42,718 nucleotides of DNA from Eubacteriales bacterium (GCA_045603205.1 JAZULS010000086.1:1-42718), one strand, 5' to 3'. Positions 1,053-11,960 are shown, numbered from the stretch's first letter. Notes: generated by a model from the sequence alone, not told the origin. Program-made: numbers and translations.

Positions 1053-3323
1053 TCAGTAAGGCAATTCTATGGAATAGAATATGAAATTCGAGGTTTGTGG
1101 ATTGCTGGACTGAAGTGTGTCATAGTCGTATCGATCCACCTCTTTATCCAAGGTTGTGTGCCGGTTTCCGCCAAGGTCCATGTAGGTGATAATACAAAGC
1201 ACGTTATCCTGGATAGAACAGCTTCTTGTGGTCGTTGCGGCAAGACGGTCATGCTTAAACTTCGCCGTACTTCCCTTGATGCTCATGGGAATGGCTCCCA
1301 CACTTCCGTTTTCGGTCCTTATCATAGGGATCAAAAGATTCGTTTCCTCTAAATTGATCTTATAAAGCTCCAGTTGGGCGTTGGAGAGTGACTGGTCTAA
1401 TGCCACAAGATATACTTCTCCGTCGGTGTTCTCTCCCACGGCAAGCTGATAATGACTGCTTCCGGAGTTGGTGTTCTTTAAGGTCAGCTTTTTGGGTCCT
1501 CTTATCTTCTCAAATCCGTTATTAGCATCGTATACGGAGTAGTAATTGGCGCCGCTTACTGAATAGAAAACGTGGAAATATCCGTCTGAAGCAAGGAAGG
1601 TACAGCCGCCGTCATATGTACAAGCGTGAGCGGGAGTGATCATGCCGTCTGTCCTTGGGAACTTTCTCTCATTGGTATAATCGGGCTCGTAGATCTTGTC
1701 TAAGATAACGACCTCTTCCTTATTAATATCGGGAATGGCAAAGAGATAGACCGCATCCCACACATACGAGGAGGTATTAAACTTTATATCAGCGTCATAT
1801 AGCTTTTTGTAAAGGGTCGTGAGCTGTTCCGGAGTTCCCGTACGACAGCCCACACCGAAAATTCCGCCCTTTCCGTCGGCGAAAAGGTTGAAGTATTCAA
1901 AGCGGTTTGCACCTGTGGGGATCTCGCCGTTGTAGTTTTTGTTCTCCCAAGTATGGGTACTTATGTCGTAATTGAACCATGATACGTATCCGACACCGAA
2001 GTTTCCGCCGGCTCCGAAGCATGCGTGAATGGTGTTATTTATATTGTCGATAACGGGATGTTGCTTATCCGCGTTCATAACACCTACTATCTGAAAGGCA
2101 TCGGGATCGGGGTTTTCAAAGGGGACCACGGCCTTTCCTACGTGCTTTATGGTGTTTGTCTTGGTATCGAACTCGTGTACTGCAAGATATGCTGAGTATT
2201 CAGCCAGATCGGAATGAAAATAGCTTACGGGGTCAACGAGGATATTGACGATATATACCATTCCGTCATTGCCGCACAGTAAGTTGGGAGAACAATTGCC
2301 CCAAATGGGGAAGGTGCTTTCATACACCTTATTGAAGCCGTGGTCCGTCACCTGAACCAGCATAAATTTAGCCTCTGCAATTGCGTAAGTATTATCCCCC
2401 TTGTACGTTCCGGTTTCAAGCAGGCTTTCATCCTGAACGAACACTATGTACGTGCCGTATTCGTTGCGGACAACTCTTGTTTCATGCCAACCGTGAGTGC
2501 TGATGCCGGTTACGGTAAACTGGTTCTCTGCCCCACCGTCATCCATCACGACTGCCTGCGAAACCTTAAAGTCTTCAACTAAAGTCAGCGAATCTGTTGA
2601 AACCGTGCCGATGTTTGAGGGGTTAGGGTCGTTTTTATCCTGACTTGGTCTGTTGTAGTTTGGGAATATGATTCCGTTATCAGCCTCCGGCAGACACGCC
2701 AGCATCCTTGCCGCTTCAACGCGGGTGGTGCCCCTGGTGGGTTCAAAGTTTCCCTTTCCGTCACCGCTTATGATACCCGCAGCAACGCACCTGTCAACTC
2801 CCTCACGTGCCCAGACAGCAACCTTGTCAATGTCATTAATCTGAACACCCATGTCGGTGGGAACGGTAAGCCCCATATAATCAATAAAGGTGTCAAGAAA
2901 CTTAGCAGTCTCCTGTCGGCTCACGCTGATTTCAGGCTTGAAGTAAAGGAGGTCTCCCTTCGGTATCCCCGAGGTGATACCCTCGTCAATCGCCCAAGCG
3001 ACGGCATCCACCGCCCAAGAGCTTATGTCATCTGCGTCAGCAAAGGTGGCGCTGAGAGTGTCAAGAGAGCCTGTAACGGTGGATTTCGCGATCCTGTAGA
3101 GAGTTACAACGAGCTGTTCACGGGTAAGAGGTAAGTCAGACCCGAAGGTGGTACCGCCCGTACCCTTCATTATTTCCTTTTCGTATACGGTACTGACGTA
3201 TTCGTCCGCCCAACCCGGAACGTCTGTGAACGGATGGGTCGCTGAAGTGCCGTTAACTGCAACAAACAAGAGCCCCGTCAGCATTATCGCCGCAAAAAAT
3301 ACACTAATAACGCGTTTTAACAT
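1053..3323 (-). CDS. Secreted protein with three N-terminal S-layer homology (SLH) domains and a large uncharacterised C-terminal region
   Basis: Signal peptide, then SLH motifs FTDVPGWA...IMKG...LTREQ, FADADDISSWA...VSRQE, DIDKVAVWA...TTRVEAA. GGAGG spacing favours the ATG at 3323 over 3329. Confidence 0.85.
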   Translation of the reverse strand: MLKRVISVFFAAIMLTGLLFVAVNGTSATHPFTDVPGWADEYVSTVYEKEIMKGTGGTTFGSDLPLTREQLVVTLYRIAKSTVTGSLDTLSATFADADDISSWAVDAVAWAIDEGITSGIPKGDLLYFKPEISVSRQETAKFLDTFIDYMGLTVPTDMGVQINDIDKVAVWAREGVDRCVAAGIISGDGKGNFEPTRGTTRVEAARMLACLPEADNGIIFPNYNRPSQDKNDPNPSNIGTVSTDSLTLVEDFKVSQAVVMDDGGAENQFTVTGISTHGWHETRVVRNEYGTYIVFVQDESLLETGTYKGDNTYAIAEAKFMLVQVTDHGFNKVYESTFPIWGNCSPNLLCGNDGMVYIVNILVDPVSYFHSDLAEYSAYLAVHEFDTKTNTIKHVGKAVVPFENPDPDAFQIVGVMNADKQHPVIDNINNTIHACFGAGGNFGVGYVSWFNYDISTHTWENKNYNGEIPTGANRFEYFNLFADGKGGIFGVGCRTGTPEQLTTLYKKLYDADIKFNTSSYVWDAVYLFAIPDINKEEVVILDKIYEPDYTNERKFPRTDGMITPAHACTYDGGCTFLASDGYFHVFYSVSGANYYSVYDANNGFEKIRGPKKLTLKNTNSGSSHYQLAVGENTDGEVYLVALDQSLSNAQLELYKINLEETNLLIPMIRTENGSVGAIPMSIKGSTAKFKHDRLAATTTRSCSIQDNVLCIITYMDLGGNRHTTLDKEVDRYDYDTLQSSNPQTSNFIFYSIELPY

Positions 3324-3364
3324 GATCATCCTCCGATTTTAGCGTCCGTTAAGATGTCAAGAAA

Positions 3365-3393
3365 ATAATATCATAATTTTTTTGCAAAGTCAA
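3365..3393 (-). promoter_or_regulatory. sigmaA-type promoter of the SLH gene
   Basis: TTGACT-17 bp-TATTAT with extended -10 TG. Confidence 0.7.
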
Positions 3394-3515
3394 CGGGACC
3401 TAAAAAAACAGAAGATTTTTGATACGGTGCGGAGTCCGAGATACCCTAAAACAGCCGCAAACATGTGTCGGTCAAAACGTTTTTTGAAAAAACTCAGTTA
3501 ATTTGCAATATAAGG

Positions 3516-3544
3516 TTGATTTTTTCGGCAAAACAAGGTAAAAT
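3516..3544 (+). promoter_or_regulatory. sigmaA-type promoter of fba
   Basis: TTGATT-17 bp-TAAAAT. Confidence 0.6.
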
Positions 3545-3605
3545 AAATTAGATAATAAAAAATACACCTTCGGGGACACCCGAAGACAAAGAAAGGATCA
3601 TTATC

Positions 3606-4565
3606 ATGGCACTCGTTAATACAAAAGAGATGTTCAAGAAGGCTTATGAGGGCGGCTACGCTATCGGTGCTTTCAATATCAACAACATGGAGATCATCCA
3701 GGCTATCACTGAGGCTGCAGGCGAGCTCAAGAGCCCCGTAGTTCTTCAGGTTTCCGCAGGTGCAAGAAAGTACGCTAAGCAGGAGTACCTTCTCGCTCTC
3801 GCTAACGCTGCTATCAAGGATTCCGGCGTTGACCTCGCACTTCACCTCGACCACGGCGCAGATTTCGAGATCTGCAAGGCTTGCATCGACGGCGGCTTCA
3901 CATCCGTTATGATCGACGGTTCTCACCACAACTTTGAGGACAACATCGCAGTTACCAAGAAGGTAGTTGAGTACGCACACGAGCGCCGCGTTACCGTTGA
4001 AGGTGAGCTCGGCGTTCTCGCAGGCGTTGAAGACGACGTTGTTGCTGAAGATTCCACATACACACGTCCCGAGGAAGTTGAAGAGTTCGTTGCAAGAACC
4101 GGCGTTGACTCTCTCGCTATCTCCATCGGTACATCCCACGGTGCATACAAGTTCACACCCGCACAGTGCACAAGAAACGAGAAGGGTATCCTCGTTCCCC
4201 CGCCGCTCCGATTCGACATCCTCGAGGAGATCATGGAGAAGATTCCGGGCTTCCCGATCGTTCTTCACGGTGCATCTTCCGTTCCCCAGGAGTACGTTGA
4301 GGAGTTCAACAACATCGGCGGAAAGCTTCCCGATGCAGTTGGTATTCCCGAGGAGCAGCTTAGAAAGGCAGCTTCCCTTGCAGTATGTAAGATCAACATC
4401 GACTCCGATATCCGTCTTGCAATGACAGCAGGTATCCGTCGCGTACTTACAAACCAGCCCGACGTATTCGACCCCAGAACTTACCTCACCGTAGCTCGTG
4501 CAGAGGTTAAGAAGATGGTTGCTCACAAGATCCTCAACGTTCTTGGCAGCGCGAATACTCTTTAA
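3606..4565 (+). CDS. fba: Class II fructose-1,6-bisphosphate aldolase
   Basis: GYAIGAFNINN, LHLDHG, FTSVMIDGS, VEGELG, IGTSHGAYK, VLHGASS, KINIDSD, FDPR. Confidence 0.96.
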   Translation: MALVNTKEMFKKAYEGGYAIGAFNINNMEIIQAITEAAGELKSPVVLQVSAGARKYAKQEYLLALANAAIKDSGVDLALHLDHGADFEICKACIDGGFTSVMIDGSHHNFEDNIAVTKKVVEYAHERRVTVEGELGVLAGVEDDVVAEDSTYTRPEEVEEFVARTGVDSLAISIGTSHGAYKFTPAQCTRNEKGILVPPPLRFDILEEIMEKIPGFPIVLHGASSVPQEYVEEFNNIGGKLPDAVGIPEEQLRKAASLAVCKINIDSDIRLAMTAGIRRVLTNQPDVFDPRTYLTVARAEVKKMVAHKILNVLGSANTL

Positions 4566-4575
4566 TTTTGAATTT

Positions 4576-4605
4576 AAAAACGACAGTCGAAAGGCTGTCG
4601 TTTTT
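4576..4605 (+). terminator. Rho-independent terminator after fba
   Basis: AAAAACGACAGTC-GAAA-GGCTGTCGTTTTT. Confidence 0.85.
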
Positions 4606-4704
4606 GTTTCTTACTCACTGTCCGATGTATTTGTCCCCATGTCAGATGTAACTCCTCTGTCACGGCACTTCCCCCACCATTTGGCTCAGCTTCTCAATAA
4701 CACA

Positions 4705-4736
4705 CAAAAAGCAGATGCTCACACATCTGCTTTTTG
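4705..4736 (-). terminator. Rho-independent terminator of the GLUG protein gene
   Basis: CAAAAAGCAGATG-CTCACA-CATCTGCTTTTTG. Confidence 0.85.
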
Positions 4737-4748
4737 ATTAGTTATTTA

Positions 4749-7568
4749 TTAGTCATAGTACCAGGTGATTCTGAAACAACCGTCAAGATAGGAATAATCA
4801 GTTCTGCACTCAAGCAGGAACAGCTCGCCACGATACTCTACATAAATATCGAGCCATACCATATTGCTGCTTAAGAACAAGAGATCATCGTCCAATACGA
4901 TACCGATCGTCTCCATGGAGTCACCTGAAACCGTCACACTACTGAGATAGCTGTTTCCGCCGGTATACAGCGCGTAAATATCTTCACTTTCACCACCAAC
5001 GTAAACATATCCACGGTCAAGAACCTTGATGGATGAATTCTCGTTGTTTGTGAGTATGACTACATAGAAATCAGTGTAATCCGACTGTCTTGACATAAAT
5101 ACTTCTACATCAGGATAGTCAACTGTCACCTTCAGCTTGTGAGTATCCTTGTAGGTCTTACCGTTATAGGTTATCCTCGCAGTTACCGTAACGGTACCCT
5201 CGTCAAGTCCTGTAATCTTTCCTGCGGAAGTGATCTTTGCGATGCTCTTGTTGCTTACAGACCAAGTCACCTTTGCTCCGCTGGGATAGGTGCTTGCCTT
5301 CATTGTCATCGTCTGACCGATGAAAAGTCCGGTTGCACTGGTTGTAATATTAACGCTGGGCTTCTTAACGGTTACCTTGATCTTCTGAGAAACACCGTTA
5401 GACTTTACGGTAATCGTAGCTGTACCTGCAGCCACACCCTTGATAGTTCCCTTAGAAGAAACAGTCGCTATCTTGCTGTTGGATGTGGAGTATGTGATCT
5501 TGGTGTTACTCTTAGCACCGATCTTGATAGTATCCCCTACAAGTACGCTGGCACTTGTCTTCTCTGTAGGTGTGATCTTATAGGTAAGAGTCTTTGTTCC
5601 TGTATAGTTACCCTTGAGAGTTACTTTTACAGAGTAGGTACCAACATTCTTCATGCCGGAGGGGTATTTTACGGAGTAGCTTGCGGTAGAAAGTGTACTT
5701 CCGTTTGCGTTAACTACAGATACAGACGGCTTCTTTGTTTTTCCGTCGTATATAGAGACAGCCTTCTTGAAGGAAACCTTACATGTGGAAATATCAATGG
5801 GGTTGATCTTATAGGTAAGTGTTTTTGTTCCTGTGTAGTTACCACCTAGAGTTACCTTTACAGAGTAAGTACCCGCATTTTTCATACCGGAGGGGTATTT
5901 TACGGAGTAGCTTGCGGTAGAAAGTGCGCTTCCGTTTGCATTTGTTACAACAACGGAGGGTTTCTTTGTACTTCCGTCATAGGTTGAGTAAGCCTTCTTG
6001 AAGGAAACTTTACATGTAGAAATACTGATAGGATTGATCTTGTAGGTAAGTGTCTTTGTTCCGCTATAATTACCACCTAGAGTTACCTTTACGGAATATG
6101 TTCCCGCACTCTTCATACCGGAGGGGTATGACACGGTGTAATTGGATGAAGAAATCGTGTTGCCCTTGGAGTCTTTCACAACAACGGAGGGTTTCTTTGT
6201 GCTTCCGTCGTAGGTGGAAGAAGACTTCTTGAAAGCTATGCTTGTGATCTTGTAAATAGTCTTGGTTGACTTTACGTCGCCGCAAGCAGAGCACTTCTCC
6301 TCAGACTTACCATCCTTTGTTGTTGTAGCCTTGGTTACAACTGTCTTATAATCGTGGCCTGCAACAGTGATGTCAAAGGAGTAGGACTCTTCTCCATAAG
6401 TTACGGTAACGGTATGAGTTCCTGCTGTAAGCTTGCCCTTAACGTCAAAGTCGCAGTCGAGAACGTAGTCTGTGATCTCATTGATCTGACCATCGGGAAG
6501 CTCCTCAACTACGGTGAGTCCTGCAAAGTCAACTATATCACCTGCGTGGTACTCAAGTTTTGTGGGAGCAGTAATAGTGATAGCACTCTTTCCGCCCTGA
6601 AGATAAGGATAACCGTTATTATTTTTACTGCTGATTGTCCAAACCGTATCAAAGTCAAAGTTGCTGAAGGAGGCTTTATCTCTCATCTGGGACGCGGTGA
6701 GTTCTGTAGCGTAGCCTGAACCGGCTCCCACAGCATATGTAGCACTGCCTGCAAGATAATAACAGCCTGTAATGCTTCCGGAAGAACACCAACCAATAAT
6801 AGCTCCGCTGTCAAGTCCGTTGATCAAACCGGCGTTGTAGCTCTTAGTGACACCTCCACCACTAGAATATCCAAAGATACCGCCGATTTCCGAGTAACCG
6901 GAAACATTTCCGACATTATAGCTGTTGTATACGTTTCCGTAGCTGTTACTTCCAACGATACCGCCAATGTCATAGTTTTCACCGGAAATATCACCTGTAT
7001 TATATGATGTGTAGATGTCACCATGATTACTGTATCCAACTATACCACCGACATATGATTCTCCGGAAACATGACTTTCGTTATAGCACTTTATAATAGC
7101 CGTGTGACTGTTAAATCCAACAATAGCTCCGACGTAACCTCCACCGCTGATATAGGAATCAACCACACCTACGTTGGAGATAGTCGCGTAGGAAGTATAA
7201 CCGAATAAGCCCTGATAGTCATCATAACTGTTGATATAAAGTCCGGACACCTCGTGACCGTCACCGTCAAAGTTACCTTTAAAGGGATAATTACATCCGA
7301 TAGCTGTCCAAAATATGTTGTTAAGATCAATATCACTTGTGAGCTTGAAATACATGCCCTCATAATGTGATCCGTTGAAGCTTGAATCTGCAAGATAAGC
7401 AAGCTGTTCAGCGCTATCAATGATGTAGGGGTCTGTCTCTGTACCTGTTCCCGAGGCAAATCCCGAAGCGATGCTTCCGTCCCAAACGTCAGTTTTTGCT
7501 GATGCGGTTACGGCAAGGCAAGTGACCATAACTACAGCCACTACCAAGAAAGTAAGCAGTCTTTTCAT
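4749..7568 (-). CDS. Secreted modular protein: GLUG-motif repeat region, Ig-like (Big_3/Big_2-type) domains and three 77-aa repeats
   Basis: Signal peptide; WDGS...GTGTETDPYII, FKGNFDGDGH, GLFG and repeated VGGIVG; TAPTKLEY; YSTSNSKIATVSSKG and WSVSNKSIAKITSAG. GGAGG favours the ATG at 7568. Confidence 0.85.
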   Translation of the reverse strand: MKRLLTFLVVAVVMVTCLAVTASAKTDVWDGSIASGFASGTGTETDPYIIDSAEQLAYLADSSFNGSHYEGMYFKLTSDIDLNNIFWTAIGCNYPFKGNFDGDGHEVSGLYINSYDDYQGLFGYTSYATISNVGVVDSYISGGGYVGAIVGFNSHTAIIKCYNESHVSGESYVGGIVGYSNHGDIYTSYNTGDISGENYDIGGIVGSNSYGNVYNSYNVGNVSGYSEIGGIFGYSSGGGVTKSYNAGLINGLDSGAIIGWCSSGSITGCYYLAGSATYAVGAGSGYATELTASQMRDKASFSNFDFDTVWTISSKNNNGYPYLQGGKSAITITAPTKLEYHAGDIVDFAGLTVVEELPDGQINEITDYVLDCDFDVKGKLTAGTHTVTVTYGEESYSFDITVAGHDYKTVVTKATTTKDGKSEEKCSACGDVKSTKTIYKITSIAFKKSSSTYDGSTKKPSVVVKDSKGNTISSSNYTVSYPSGMKSAGTYSVKVTLGGNYSGTKTLTYKINPISISTCKVSFKKAYSTYDGSTKKPSVVVTNANGSALSTASYSVKYPSGMKNAGTYSVKVTLGGNYTGTKTLTYKINPIDISTCKVSFKKAVSIYDGKTKKPSVSVVNANGSTLSTASYSVKYPSGMKNVGTYSVKVTLKGNYTGTKTLTYKITPTEKTSASVLVGDTIKIGAKSNTKITYSTSNSKIATVSSKGTIKGVAAGTATITVKSNGVSQKIKVTVKKPSVNITTSATGLFIGQTMTMKASTYPSGAKVTWSVSNKSIAKITSAGKITGLDEGTVTVTARITYNGKTYKDTHKLKVTVDYPDVEVFMSRQSDYTDFYVVILTNNENSSIKVLDRGYVYVGGESEDIYALYTGGNSYLSSVTVSGDSMETIGIVLDDDLLFLSSNMVWLDIYVEYRGELFLLECRTDYSYLDGCFRITWYYD
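5574..6240. repeat. About three tandem 231-bp (77-aa) intragenic repeats
   Basis: GATCTT(A/G)TAGGTAAG recurs at 5574, 5805 and 6036; protein unit FKK..S.YDG.TKKPSV.V....G......Y.V.YPSGMK..GTYSVKVTL.GNY.GTKTLTYKI. Confidence 0.92.
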
Positions 7569-7645
7569 AATGTCCTCCATAAAAAACTAAATTGCGCATC
7601 TGAATTTGCGCGTTTTTTTGCTACATAGTTTTCGTAGTTTTCTAA

Positions 7646-7761: not shown

Positions 7762-7790
7762 TTGCAAACTTTCGGGAAAAGTTATATAAT
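7762..7790 (+). promoter_or_regulatory. sigmaA promoter of the thioesterase / Nudix-RNase H / DUF1294 operon
   Basis: TTGCAA-17 bp-TATAAT. Confidence 0.75.
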
Positions 7791-7840
7791 ATTCTTCGGT
7801 TTAATTTTCTATACTGATGTTTGAAGTGAGGACACGAAAC

Positions 7841-8578
7841 ATGAAATGGACTGAAACCTACCGACTCGGTGCTGCCGAGTCTGATATAAACAGAATCGCA
7901 TCCCCCTCAGCTATACTCAGATACATGCAAAACGCTACCAACTGCCAGATGATGGCGATGGGTCCCTCCTATGAGGAGCTGTTCGACAGGGGATATGCCT
8001 TTATCCTCAGCAAGATCACCTACAGTATCTACGGCACCATCAGCGCTCACGACGAGTTCGAGGTGGAGACCTGGGCGACCCCCTCAAGAGGCGTTACTTT
8101 CAACCGTTGCTACAGAATCACCAAGGGAGATTCTCTTATCGCAGAGGGAGTTTCCATGTGGGCTCTCGTAAACACCCGCGAAAAGAAGCTTTGCCGTGTT
8201 GGCGAGGTTGAATTAAACTACGGAGAGGATGCCCCTCTTGAGCTTGACACTCCCACAAGATTCCGTATCCCCTCGGAGGCGGAGCTGACCCTCGTCGGTG
8301 AACGACTTGTAGAGTACGCAGACTGTGACCTGAACGGACACATGAACAACACAAAATACCCCGACCTGATGTGCAGCTACATCTGCAGTATGAAGGGCGT
8401 GCGTCCTGCGAAGATCAGCATCAACTTCGTAAACGAAGCACCTCTCGGGGACTCAGTTAAGATTTATTCGGGCTTCTGCGACGACGCATACTACGTGCGT
8501 ACCGTGAGAGAAGACGGAAAGGTGAACGCAGAGGCTGAGATCGTTCTTGAGGACATCTCTCCTTCAAGGATAGGTTGA
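7841..8578 (+). CDS. Acyl-ACP thioesterase (FatA/FatB-like double hot-dog fold)
   Basis: EVETW, SMWALVN...KKL and the catalytic-type motif [13 protein letters not shown]; GAGG precedes the ATG at 7841. Confidence 0.88.
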
Positions 8579-8579
8579 T

Positions 8580-9551
8580 ATGAGATACACTACCCTTTGC
8601 TATATTGAAAAAGACGCTTCCTACCTGATGCTCCACCGCACCAAGAAGGAGCATGACGTGAATCGCGACAAGTGGATAGGAATCGGCGGCTCCTTTGAGT
8701 TCGGCGAGACTCCCGAGGAGTGCGTCACCCGTGAGATGGTGGAGGAGACGGGACTTGAACCCTCGCGCCTCGATTACAGAGGCATCGTCACCTTCCTCTA
8801 CGGAAACGAGTGCGAATATATGCACCTTTTCAAGTGTACGGATTTTTCGGGTGTGATAAAAGAGTGCGACGAGGGCGAGCTTGAATGGGTATCAAAGGAT
8901 AGACTTCCTTCTCTCGAGCTTTGGGAGGGAGATTACGTCTTCCTCGACCTGCTTGAAGAGAACGTGCCCTTCTTCTCGCTGAAGCTGTGCTACGACGCGG
9001 GCGAAAAACTTTCTCTTGCACTTCTTAACGGACAAAGCATCCCCCTGCCCTACAAAAAAGCGGCAAGTGGAGATGAAAAACCGAAGGCAAATGCCAAAAA
9101 CGCCGCGGAAAAGAAGGAAATCGAGATCTATACCGATGGCTCTTGCCGCAAGAATCCCGGTCCCGGCGGCTGGGGCGCGATCCTTGTGTATGGCGGACGT
9201 GAAGTTGAGCTTTCCGGAGGCGAAGCGGAGACCACCAACAACCGAATGGAGCTGACCGCCGTAATAGAGGCTCTCTCCAAGCTGAAGCACCCCTGCCGCG
9301 TCACCCTCACCACCGATTCAAAGTACGTTTGCGACGGAATTTCAAAGGGTTGGGCGAAAAACTGGCGTAAAAAGGGCTGGAAGAAGGGCGACGGATCCCC
9401 TGCCCTGAACCCCGACTTGTGGGAAAAACTGCTCTCTCTCTGCGACACCCACGAGGTGAAGTTCGTGTGGGTCAAGGGACACGCGGGACACCCCTACAAC
9501 GAGCGCTGTGATGAGCTTGCGCAGGCTGAATCGGGTAAGTTTTTGATATGA
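8580..9551 (+). CDS. rnhA: Fusion of a MutT/MutX-type Nudix hydrolase (8-oxo-dGTPase-like) and ribonuclease HI
   Basis: N-terminal [18 protein letters not shown]...DKWIGIG with a complete Nudix box [23 protein letters not shown]. From about 9111: [48 protein letters not shown] (RNase HI). Confidence 0.9.
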
Positions 9552-9823
9552 TCTACAAGATCTCATTAGTATATTTGGCACTTGTCTCGCTTGTTTCCGT
9601 TGTCGTCACCTGTCACGACAAGCACCGTGCTATCGTAGGCGGCAGGCGTGTGCCCGAGATGACGCTGCTTAATCTTGCGGTCTTCGGCGGCTCCGTGGCG
9701 ATGTATCTGACAATGAAGCTTATACGTCATAAAACGAGACACCCAAAATTCATGGTGGGCATCCCTGTGATAATCTTAATGCAGGTTTTGGTGATAGGCT
9801 CTATCATTTACCTTTGCAGATAA
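9548..9823 (+). CDS. DUF1294 family small membrane protein
   Basis: DK.RA....RRVPE.TL..LA..GGS.......IRHKTRH.KF; ATGA overlap with the upstream gene. Confidence 0.9.
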
Positions 9824-9832
9824 AAAAGATGA

Positions 9833-9866
9833 TCCCCTGCGGCAAAAAAGTCGCAGGGGAATTTTT
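9833..9866. terminator. Terminator between convergent genes
   Basis: TCCCCTGCGGC-AAAAAA-GTCGCAGGGGA followed by ATTTTT. Confidence 0.75.
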
Positions 9867-9882: not shown

Positions 9883-10788
9883 TTATTTATTTTCGAGGGG
9901 ATAGCGGAAGGTGACCTCAAATTCATGAGGATTTTCACTTAAAGGATAGTTCTGGCTACTCTTGATATATTCTGACTCTCTGATCCAAGTGGTATCAACC
10001 ATCGCGAAAACACCAATATAATAACCGTCGTCGTCTTTGTTTAAAGTATAATCAAGTATTTCATACTTGTCATAGCCTTTGCTTGCCACGTCCTCAAGAA
10101 CTTCTTCAACGAACTTTATAACGTCCTCCTTTGCGATGCTGTCAAGCACTTCAAAATTAAATCCTTCAAATTTTTCGGGATTAGTCATATCGTGCATATA
10201 TACAACACCGTCGTACCTTACACTGACGGAAGAATACTGTCCCTTGATAAAAGAACCTTTGCCGTAAAGCATATAATGGTGTACATGATACTTGCACATG
10301 CTATCAATAGGCTTTACATCAACAAATGTGTACTTGTCAAAGAAACTTTCTCCCTGATTTTCAAGAAGATATTTTTCTGCGATCTCACGGGCTTCTTCTT
10401 CGGAGACTTTTATTCCTTTATATCCATCCTCCATTTCATCAAGTGACGCATCATCCTCAACTGCGAGCCACGATCTTACCAAGGCACCCTCTTTATTATA
10501 ATAGTAGTAGTTGCCTTGATCGTCGGTATATGTGTAAAGTGGCAATCCGCGTTCATCGGTGGTTTCTGCGTCAAAACTGAGTTTAAATACCTCTCCGTTT
10601 AGGTTGGTAAACTCTTTGAACTGTGGTATATCATCATTTGGAGGTTCGGGCAAATCATCATTTGAAGATTCTGGAAGATTTTCCTCGGGAATAAACCACT
10701 CACCATCATTAATAGCATAAACAGTAAGTCCTGCAATAATTCCCAAGAGAACGACTGATAAAATAATCATTAATAATTTCTTTTTCAT
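9883..10788 (-). CDS. Hypothetical acidic exported or membrane-anchored protein with a PepSY/YcdB-like segment
   Basis: N-terminal hydrophobic helix, AGGAG RBS, and VSEEEAREIAEKYL...Y......G..IKG...SVSVRYDG resembling peptidase-propeptide (PepSY/YcdB-YcdC) repeats. The domain call is tentative. Confidence 0.65.
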   Translation of the reverse strand: MKKKLLMIILSVVLLGIIAGLTVYAINDGEWFIPEENLPESSNDDLPEPPNDDIPQFKEFTNLNGEVFKLSFDAETTDERGLPLYTYTDDQGNYYYYNKEGALVRSWLAVEDDASLDEMEDGYKGIKVSEEEAREIAEKYLLENQGESFFDKYTFVDVKPIDSMCKYHVHHYMLYGKGSFIKGQYSSVSVRYDGVVYMHDMTNPEKFEGFNFEVLDSIAKEDVIKFVEEVLEDVASKGYDKYEILDYTLNKDDDGYYIGVFAMVDTTWIRESEYIKSSQNYPLSENPHEFEVTFRYPLENK

Positions 10789-10838: not shown

Positions 10839-11960
10839 TTATCCTAAAACAAGAGACCTCAGATCGCAATTTCCATAATAATACTCATATAGAGTTCCGT
10901 TGTCATATACACCTGTCCTTTCAAAATCTAAAATCGCTAAATCAAGTGCTTTTTTTGCCGAATTTCCTTGAGCCATGTATTCAAATAACCTGGCCACCAG
11001 ATAATTGGAGTTGGCAGTATTAACTTTACCGATCCACCCGATACAGTTCATAGCGCCTTTTTCAAGTGTCATATCAACAACATTTCCATATCCTTGGTCA
11101 CTCGTTGCACCAGAATAACATGAAGTATATACTGTCAAATAATTATTAGACAAAGCATTGTTAGAATATGTCGATAATGCTCTATTAGCTGAGGACATAT
11201 TGTTGTATCCATTAGCGTAAATTACTGTCGTCGCAGCATTGGATCTCCCTTGTGTAAAATAACCTTTATTGCCGTGACAAGCTATAACATTTATGATAGA
11301 ATCGGGCATAGTGTTGTAAATTGGGGCAGCGACATTATTAAGATATTCACCTCCGGCATACCCCATGTCCCAAATATAGTCTAGTGAATCTGCAATAGGA
11401 CGGGTAGAGTAGACTCTATCAGGCTCAGTACTATTTTCAGAATAACTATGGTCATCGTTATTATAAATGTAATACGTAGTGAAAATTCTAGCTGTACCTT
11501 CTACCGGATAATTTTTTGCACGCAACAAATAATTTGAACCGGAATGACCGCTCGTACTTGCAACCTTTATGTAATAATACGTGTCAGCTTCAACTCGCAT
11601 GCGGATCAATTCCTGTTGATTTGAAGTTTTATTTGAGGTTGCTATCGAGTTACCCGCTCCGGGATCCGTGAATACCTGAATATAGTAGTTGCATCCGCTG
11701 GGAATATTACCAAGCCAAATATTTGCAAGTCCGTCTTCGTCAAACTTTAATTTCCACCAGTCGGCACTATCAATTTCAGAGGTTAACGCGCCGTAGTTAT
11801 TATAATCCTCGTAGGTCAAATCGGCTTTACTGGATATGTTATTGATTTCGCTTTCGTAAGTCGTACCTGAAACGGAATAAACGATGATAGAACAGTTAAT
11901 TAACAGGCAAATTGCGAGAAGCAAAGCTTTTATCCTGTTGTATAGAATACGTTTTGTCAT
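10839..11960 (-). CDS. Secreted protein: PPC-like beta-sandwich plus caspase/gingipain/CHAT-fold domain (putative cysteine protease)
   Basis: Signal peptide and AAGGAG RBS; ESEINN...DWWK...YYYIKV (PPC-like); VIACHG (H229), VYTSCYSG (C281), KGAMNCIGW..KV, LFEYMAQG.SAKKAL, YYYGN. Confidence 0.7.
   Translation of the reverse strand: MTKRILYNRIKALLLAICLLINCSIIVYSVSGTTYESEINNISSKADLTYEDYNNYGALTSEIDSADWWKLKFDEDGLANIWLGNIPSGCNYYIQVFTDPGAGNSIATSNKTSNQQELIRMRVEADTYYYIKVASTSGHSGSNYLLRAKNYPVEGTARIFTTYYIYNNDDHSYSENSTEPDRVYSTRPIADSLDYIWDMGYAGGEYLNNVAAPIYNTMPDSIINVIACHGNKGYFTQGRSNAATTVIYANGYNNMSSANRALSTYSNNALSNNYLTVYTSCYSGATSDQGYGNVVDMTLEKGAMNCIGWIGKVNTANSNYLVARLFEYMAQGNSAKKALDLAILDFERTGVYDNGTLYEYYYGNCDLRSLVLG

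Follow-up and report, generated by a model that had tools for sequence, protein, structure and literature searches.

A Nudix–RNase HI fusion restricted to one genus-level lineage of uncultured gut Clostridia

The RNase HI of E. coli (RnhA; PDB 2rn2/1rch family) has its own start codon. In the actinobacterial bifunctional RNase H/acid phosphatases (NF005567; presumably including Rv2228c of M. tuberculosis and SCO2299 of S. coelicolor) one polypeptide combines a domain of the RNase HI type with a phosphohydrolase, a C-terminal CobC/histidine-phosphatase, that acts on small phosphorylated metabolites. The gene described here, from a window of 42,718 nts (the whole stretch of DNA analysed) of a Eubacteriales bacterium, resembles the latter in plan, though its partner domain is N-terminal and of the Nudix type. 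Its C-terminal 145 aa align end to end with E. coli RnhA (E about 1e-52), from which it differs in that a Nudix domain and tether, 178 aa together, precede them and that the RNase H part lacks a separate start codon. With the NF005567 model the protein reaches 25 bits, all from the RNase H part, where 326 are needed, which places it outside that family.

An earlier note on this DNA had described one 323-aa ORF with a complete Nudix box and all RNase HI motifs, and the ORF call, the Pfam and NCBIfam scores and the alignment with the E. coli enzyme all bear this out (Table 1). Pfam NUDIX matches aa 8–124 (E 2.2e-15; 57.3 bits against a gathering cut-off of 21.1) and Pfam RNase_H (PF00075) aa 179–317 (E 6.7e-46), and the NCBIfam RNase HI equivalog model NF001236 gives 213.7 bits against a cut-off of 160, so that the C-terminal domain classes as RNase HI. 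The Nudix box reads G37-x5-E43-x7-R51-E52-M-V-E55-E56-T-G58-L59, and the domain falls within the PF00293 superfamily. In the alignment of fused homologues, G37, E43, R51, E52, E55 and E56 of the box are invariant in 33 of 33, as are the DEDD and H residues of the RNase H domain, which align to D10, E48, D70, H124 and D134 of E. coli RNase HI. The basic protrusion, or handle, is present as well (the alignment of aa 256–282 with the E. coli handle is ungapped). Stand-alone Nudix orthologues (155–160 aa; that of genome G040, in locus L020, for example) terminate at the same LPYK point at which the Nudix domain is taken to end here. As far as sequence can tell, both active sites are intact in one polypeptide, predicted to have Nudix hydrolase and RNase HI activity.

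Table 1. Features of the fusion ORF and its flanks (positions counted from the first nucleotide of the window)
Feature	Position	Strand	Details
Sigma-70-like promoter candidate, TTGCAA-17-TATAAT	7762..7790	+	10/12 consensus positions; consensus match only
Acyl-ACP thioesterase-like gene	7817..8578	+	253 aa; PF01643 E 3e-11, PF20791 E 8e-9
Whole fusion ORF	8580..9551	+	323 aa + stop; start ATG, stop TGA
NUDT1/MTH1-like Nudix domain	8580..9056	+	aa 1–159; C-terminal limit is the conserved LPYK motif
Nudix box G37..L59	8688..8756	+	read from the sequence
Lys/Ala/Ser-rich basic tether	9057..9113	+	aa 160–178, 19 residues
RNase HI domain	9114..9548	+	aa 179–323; D186, E224, D246, H301, D311
DUF1294 small membrane protein gene	9548..9823	+	PF06961, E 4.8e-20
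Intrinsic-terminator-like hairpin + T run	9833..9860	+	11 pairs, 8 GC; closes the unit

No in-frame ATG, GTG or TTG occurs between codon 129, within the Nudix domain, and codon 203, which is past the first catalytic Asp of the RNase H domain. The complete RNase H domain can therefore be translated only as part of the fusion, and the absence of an in-frame start ahead of it, claimed earlier, holds. The out-of-frame ATGs that had been pointed to as possible starts of a separate rnhA, at 9073 and 9091, do exist and sit in a 79-aa ORF (9016..9255) of a different frame. These findings bear on whether the ORF yields two proteins, with internal initiation or proteolysis in the tether freeing RNase HI; the two halves would then be fused at the level of the gene alone. 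A Met at the exact start position of stand-alone rnhA is kept in 5 of 33 fused proteins, and the tether is predicted to be disordered and, being purine-rich, resembles a ribosome-binding site. However, the Met is missing from the other 28, Lys (K178; AAG, 9111–9113) occupies the place of the ATG in the window, and with no start between codons 129 and 203 there is only a slight chance that a second product is made in this way.

That the single ORF is genuine is evident from its recurrence. In a search of 5.8 billion clustered proteins, PF00075 and PF00293 are fused in 34 of the 120 clusters among the matches listed (P0001–P0034; 55–100% identity; sources ncbi, ena, jgi and lgn), the remaining listed clusters being RNase H without Nudix. 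Among 20 species genomes of the genus, the fused frame is present as one ORF in 10 (G000, G003, G007, G008, G009, G011, G015, G016, G017 and G019; G008 is counted from a contig-end fragment spanning the linker). Contigs of related strains from two other sequencing runs bridge the tether without net frame change, one (X1 record 3) with 0 gaps and one (X2 record 12) with a compensating −1/+1 pair 7 nts apart. The one circumstance that would suit an assembly or frameshift artefact, with two genes in truth, is that a single congener of the 20, G006, has adjacent separate genes in two frames offset by 1 nt. Against the fused frame in ten species genomes, in clusters from four sources and in the bridging contigs of two runs, such an artefact is effectively excluded. 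Separate genes in relatives had been named earlier as a sign against the fusion; they are indeed found in G006, and seven congeners (G001, G002, G004, G010, G013, G014 and G018) have rnhA alone. An RNase HI match is absent from the other two of the 20, G005 and G012, both incomplete (71% and 78% complete).

Outside the genus, 21 genomes representing other genera of its family and order all lack the fusion, and 18 of them have a stand-alone RNase HI; in G040, of another genus, the Nudix orthologue (65% identity) is on a contig separate from that of RNase HI. The fusion is restricted to one genus-level lineage of uncultured gut Clostridia. (In G023, L019 2495–3190 on the minus strand, RNase HI lies in a 310-aa stop-to-stop frame overlapping an upstream ThiF-like gene; its real start is probably internal, with no fusion.) A short-peptide-pattern scan of genome contigs gave 1 fused locus among 39. 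The Nudix-N/RNase HI-C architecture is absent from the 112 scanned of the best 150 matches in a representative library, but this library evidently has no fused member of the family and so gives no count of the fusion.

The promoter-like site and the strong terminator-like hairpin bracket three genes, for the thioesterase, the fusion and DUF1294, that adjoin or overlap one another: the stop of the thioesterase-like gene is 1 nt ahead of the fusion ATG, and the DUF1294 ATG overlaps the fusion stop (ATGA). This gene order is common to all fused loci. The thioesterase is upstream of the fused gene in L002–L007, L010 and L011 and upstream of the split pair of G006 in L012, and the rnhA–DUF1294 pair is kept where rnhA stands alone in G010, G014 and G018. 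The genome of the window (98.8% complete) has one RNase HI match, the fusion ORF, together with one RNase HII and six Nudix loci, none of the six reaching an NCBIfam equivalog cut-off; its best YtkD/RppH-like candidate is another gene, L070 (53.9 bits). On the opposite strand, flanking the unit, the window encodes a 943-aa secreted protein (4749..7580, −) with Gly-rich repeats, then three near-identical repeats of about 90 aa (…SFKK…STYDGSTKKPSVVV…GTKTLTYKINPI…) and Ig-like C-terminal modules, and, downstream of the operon, proteins of 301 and 373 aa with signal peptides (9883..10788, − and 10839..11960, −).

In the split pair of G006 the nudix stop TGA (L012 1502–1504) and the rnhA GTG at 1501 form a 4-nt overlap, with frames offset by 1 nt and AGGA 8 nts upstream; the flanking genes are as in the fused loci. 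Stand-alone rnhA of the genus starts MKHV(D/E)IYTDGS, and tblastn (E<=5) found no Nudix remnants 5′ of these genes. The fusion would have come from an ancestral, translationally coupled operon, thioesterase–nudix–rnhA–DUF1294, in which a NUDT1/MTH1-like gene was directly 5′ of rnhA. A small indel or stop loss in the purine-rich junction would have joined the two frames, and the old rnhA 5′ region would have turned into a disordered, lysine-rich tether. To pass from the split to the fused state, or back, a single small indel in this purine-rich tail would suffice.

Three quick maximum-likelihood trees (LG+G4, SH-aLRT support only; P0032, partial, and L025, redundant, left out) bear on the number of events. 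The RpoB tree has 20 rows, G017 and G019 having no usable rpoB, and two divergent contaminant contigs as outgroup. In this single-gene quick tree G006 is basal (81% SH-aLRT), six rnhA-only species form one clade (100), and the eight placed fused species form another together with G005, to which G010 is sister with weak support. This topology is repeated in the tree of RNase H domains (60 rows), where 42 fused rows and G010 make up one clade. In the Nudix domain tree (75 rows) the fused domains group with those of G006, G040 and one other stand-alone orthologue, within a broad Clostridia family (Oscillospiraceae, Lachnospiraceae, Christensenellaceae). No starred branch of the RpoB and RNase H trees contradicts a single origin, and the simplest reading is one fusion event within the genus. 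Either a secondary frameshift or an error in the MAG could account for the split in G006. In both trees G010, with its stand-alone rnhA, branches at the foot of the fused clade or within it, which would mean either that the Nudix domain was lost there or that the fusion postdates the branching of G010. (A second, very divergent rpoB is carried by contigs G008:C71 (L088) and G007:C208 (L092), 63% and 57% identical, respectively, to RpoB of the window's genome; these contigs are likely bin contaminants.)

The best solved relatives of the Nudix half are NUDT1/MTH1 proteins (zebrafish 5otn, human 1iry), with E 2.3e-14 to 3e-11, together with a pair of structural-genomics proteins from bacteria labelled ‘MutT/nudix’; the S. 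pneumoniae MutT/nudix protein 2b06 is among these closest structures. The alignment with NUDT1/MTH1 (query aa 23–131) passes the Nudix box into the W-x-x-D region, at only about 30% identity. Among the residues of human MTH1 taken to be those for base recognition of 8-oxoG/2-oxoA (N33, W117, D119 and D120), W117 and D120 are kept (W115 and D118 here), whereas N33 is replaced by Ile (I33) and D119 by Gly (G117), both of them invariant or nearly so across the 33 fused homologues. The earlier designation of the domain as MutT-type is too specific. MutT models are far under their cut-offs (TIGR00586, 30.6 against 97.9 bits; NF008044, 29.4 against 148), and E. coli MutT (1mut) matches over the box region only (E 2.6e-4). 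RppH/YtkD models, at 16–21 bits against cut-offs of 116–259, likewise place it outside their families, and no curated NCBIfam family cut-off is reached by this half.

The replacement of N33 and D119 could be taken to mean that the domain is an enzyme no longer and serves RNase HI as a nucleotide-binding or regulatory module. This is very improbable: the catalytic residues of the Nudix box are invariant in all 33 fused homologues, dN/dS is 0.14, and stand-alone Nudix orthologues carry the same replaced positions, from which it follows that the changes are older than the fusion. Being closest to NUDT1/MTH1, yet with MutT models below cut-off, the half is treated here as a NUDT1-like house-cleaning pyrophosphohydrolase. 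The substrate that it hydrolyses would be a nucleoside-diphosphate-X, a non-canonical (d)NTP being the likeliest. Its orthologues are named ‘8-oxo-dGTP diphosphatase’ in source annotations; with no curated cut-off reached and two MTH1 recognition residues different, the label ‘MutT / 8-oxo-dGTPase’ calls for caution throughout this Nudix subfamily.

Both halves have many unrelated partners elsewhere. When the Nudix region is the query, RNase H fusions make up 32 of 120 listed clusters, and in 31 of the 120 (P0273–P0356; about 303–331 aa) the subfamily is joined to PF04463, which we take to be the 2-thiouracil-desulfurase/DUF523 family and which would be a second nucleotide/nucleobase clean-up pairing. 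Its other partners are PNPOx-like, flavodoxin-like, GNAT and WYL domains, or a second Nudix. Lachnospiraceae have Nudix orthologues as tandem Nudix-Nudix proteins of 350–500 aa, with two NUDIX stretches each (L027 1572–2627, L035 2929–4014, L037 2533–4035, L044 2953–4002 and L046 2950–4014). RNase HI is joined elsewhere to DUF559, Dabb, HBD, Macro and antitoxin-like domains, and a second RNase H is a very frequent partner. Library matches with two stretches were considered as candidate fusions of reversed order, RNase H–Nudix, and rejected on the Pfam result: 50 of the 52 multi-stretch matches scanned (P0121–P0266) have two or three tandem RNase_H PF00075 domains in 276–576 aa, which suggests that proteins with RNase HI in tandem are common. 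P0168 is a tandem NUDIX protein, and only P0145 has both families (RNase_H twice, then Nudix_N and NUDIX).

No conserved partner emerges from the gene neighbours of the Nudix orthologues, which are heterogeneous across 31 loci (60 of 91 ORFs scanned; 33 loci had been taken, L055 and L062 being dropped since no ORF was called, and the scan passed over plain Nudix ORFs and three near-duplicate loci, L038, L039 and L042). In L028 a Maf-like NTP pyrophosphatase fused to HD (YfbR-like 5′-deoxynucleotidase; 3485–4939) is directly 3′ of a stand-alone Nudix orthologue, making a cluster of house-cleaning enzymes, and in L020 (G040) a Y-family DNA polymerase (IMS + IMS_C; 2984–4240) is the divergent neighbour of one.

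The tether was earlier put at about 25 aa and called Lys/Ala-rich; the composition stands, and the length is now placed at 19 residues. Across 33 fused proteins it ranges from 8 to 53 aa (median 19), with K at 27%, A at 17% and S at 12.5%. It carries net positive charge in 32 of the 33 homologues (median +4), and the LPYK motif just before it is nearly invariant, for which reasons it may contribute to nucleic-acid binding. In nine fused coding sequences (36 pairs; L008, partial, and L025 left out) median dN/dS is 0.144 for Nudix, 0.76 for the tether and 0.092 for RNase H, with mean amino-acid identities of 71%, 9% and 80%. Purifying selection acts on both domains, and the tether evolves almost freely. 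AlphaFold2, run with the family alignment, gives pLDDT of 84–97 for aa 1–160, mostly 64–94 for RNase H and below 50 for aa 162–176, where the tether is predicted to be disordered; pTM is 0.52 despite well-folded domains, so the two are without confident relative placement.

The reading favoured here, with moderate confidence, is that of a young, genus-restricted fusion of neighbouring co-translated housekeeping genes, whose two domains work separately, joined by a flexible basic tether. The C-terminal domain would be the only RNase HI of the cell and would cleave the RNA of RNA:DNA hybrids, such as R-loops and primers, through the usual two-metal DEDD mechanism. The main effect of fusion would be to fix 1:1 co-expression, with no need for obligatory mechanistic coupling. 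What the comparisons establish is the architecture, with its conservation and distribution, the pattern of selection and the predicted disorder; both activities, the class of substrate and the absence of coupling are inferred. Independence of the halves is suggested by the near-neutral, poorly conserved and length-variable tether, by its low pLDDT and the low pTM, by the seven congeners that have rnhA alone and by the variety of partners to which each half is fused elsewhere.

The earlier proposal of a coupled enzyme fares poorly for the same reasons: the tether is hypervariable and predicted disordered, and sisters have rnhA alone or separate genes. Coupling would mean that the tether brings Nudix to RNA:DNA hybrids at replication forks or R-loops, where its task would be either to clear damaged (d)NTPs on the spot or to take the 5′ triphosphate or another 5′ cap off primer or R-loop RNA, making the leftovers of RNase HI degradable. 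The fusion has stayed intact across at least 10 species and the 34 listed clusters with both active sites invariant, the species of the window makes RNase HI only as the fusion, the tether is consistently basic, and a few stand-alone Nudix orthologues adjoin the Y-family polymerase (L020), Maf-HD (L028) or RecU (L059) genes; a possible independent Nudix + RNase H family in Saccharimonadota, seen in catalogue labels only, would also fit. However, tether length and sequence are unconstrained, AlphaFold2 finds no confident inter-domain arrangement, congeners manage without Nudix, RppH models give only 16–17 bits against cut-offs of 116–259, with L070 the better YtkD/RppH-like candidate, and the neighbours of Nudix orthologues vary widely over the 31 loci. 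Coupling is thus unlikely, though not implausible, and independent action of the two domains is preferred. If they merely coexist, the locus is a neat, datable case of adjacent translationally coupled genes fusing, with little functional consequence, the one genus still having the split, the fused and the ‘fossil start codon’ forms. If the pairing has been selected, as the Saccharimonadota labels could indicate, Nudix chemistry would be tied to RNA:DNA hybrid processing, a link not known to have been explored in bacteria.

A full-text literature search, with subscription-only papers outside its coverage, returned no paper on a Nudix–RNase HI fusion, which agrees with the earlier view of the pairing as uncharacterised. 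An architecture already common and described had also been named earlier as a sign against the fusion, and this applies in part, since the pairing is already in an automatic catalogue: the ESM Atlas has a Bacillota cluster named ‘NUDIX/RNase H domain-containing protein’ (121 members), probably the same family. The Atlas also has 12 Saccharimonadota clusters with RVT_3/RNase_H + NUDIX, known from automatic domain labels alone and including a ‘14.7 kDa ribonuclease H family protein’ (RVT_3 + NUDIX + RNase_H). As compared by these labels only, their RNase H is of the RVT_3 type, unlike that of the fusion here, which hints at a separate Nudix + RNase H family. If the Saccharimonadota fusion is independent, recurrence would favour a functional link over accident. 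Tethering of Nudix to RNase H would then be a recurrent selected design, arrived at independently in the Clostridia genus and in Saccharimonadota, with Nudix sharing the substrate of RNase H: it could remove a 5′ triphosphate or a nucleotide cap from the RNA of primers or R-loops, or break down damaged (r/d)NTPs where hybrids are processed, and the basic tether would help to retain the nucleic acid. This is doubtful.

In its layout, an N-terminal accessory module on a flexible linker, the fusion is like RNase H1 with a hybrid-binding domain (PF01693 Cauli_VI + RNase_H), an architecture present in 7 of 60 scanned representatives (P0177, P0184, P0216, P0246, P0253, P0265 and similar). The accessory module of RNase H1 is a nucleic-acid binder and not an enzyme, whereas here it is Nudix. 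Proteins joining DUF429 (RNase H-like clade D) to NUDIX are listed, also from Clostridia and with no function given (Majorek et al. 2014, PMC3985635). They too pair Nudix with a domain of the RNase H fold, though DUF429 differs from the RNase HI of the present fusion.
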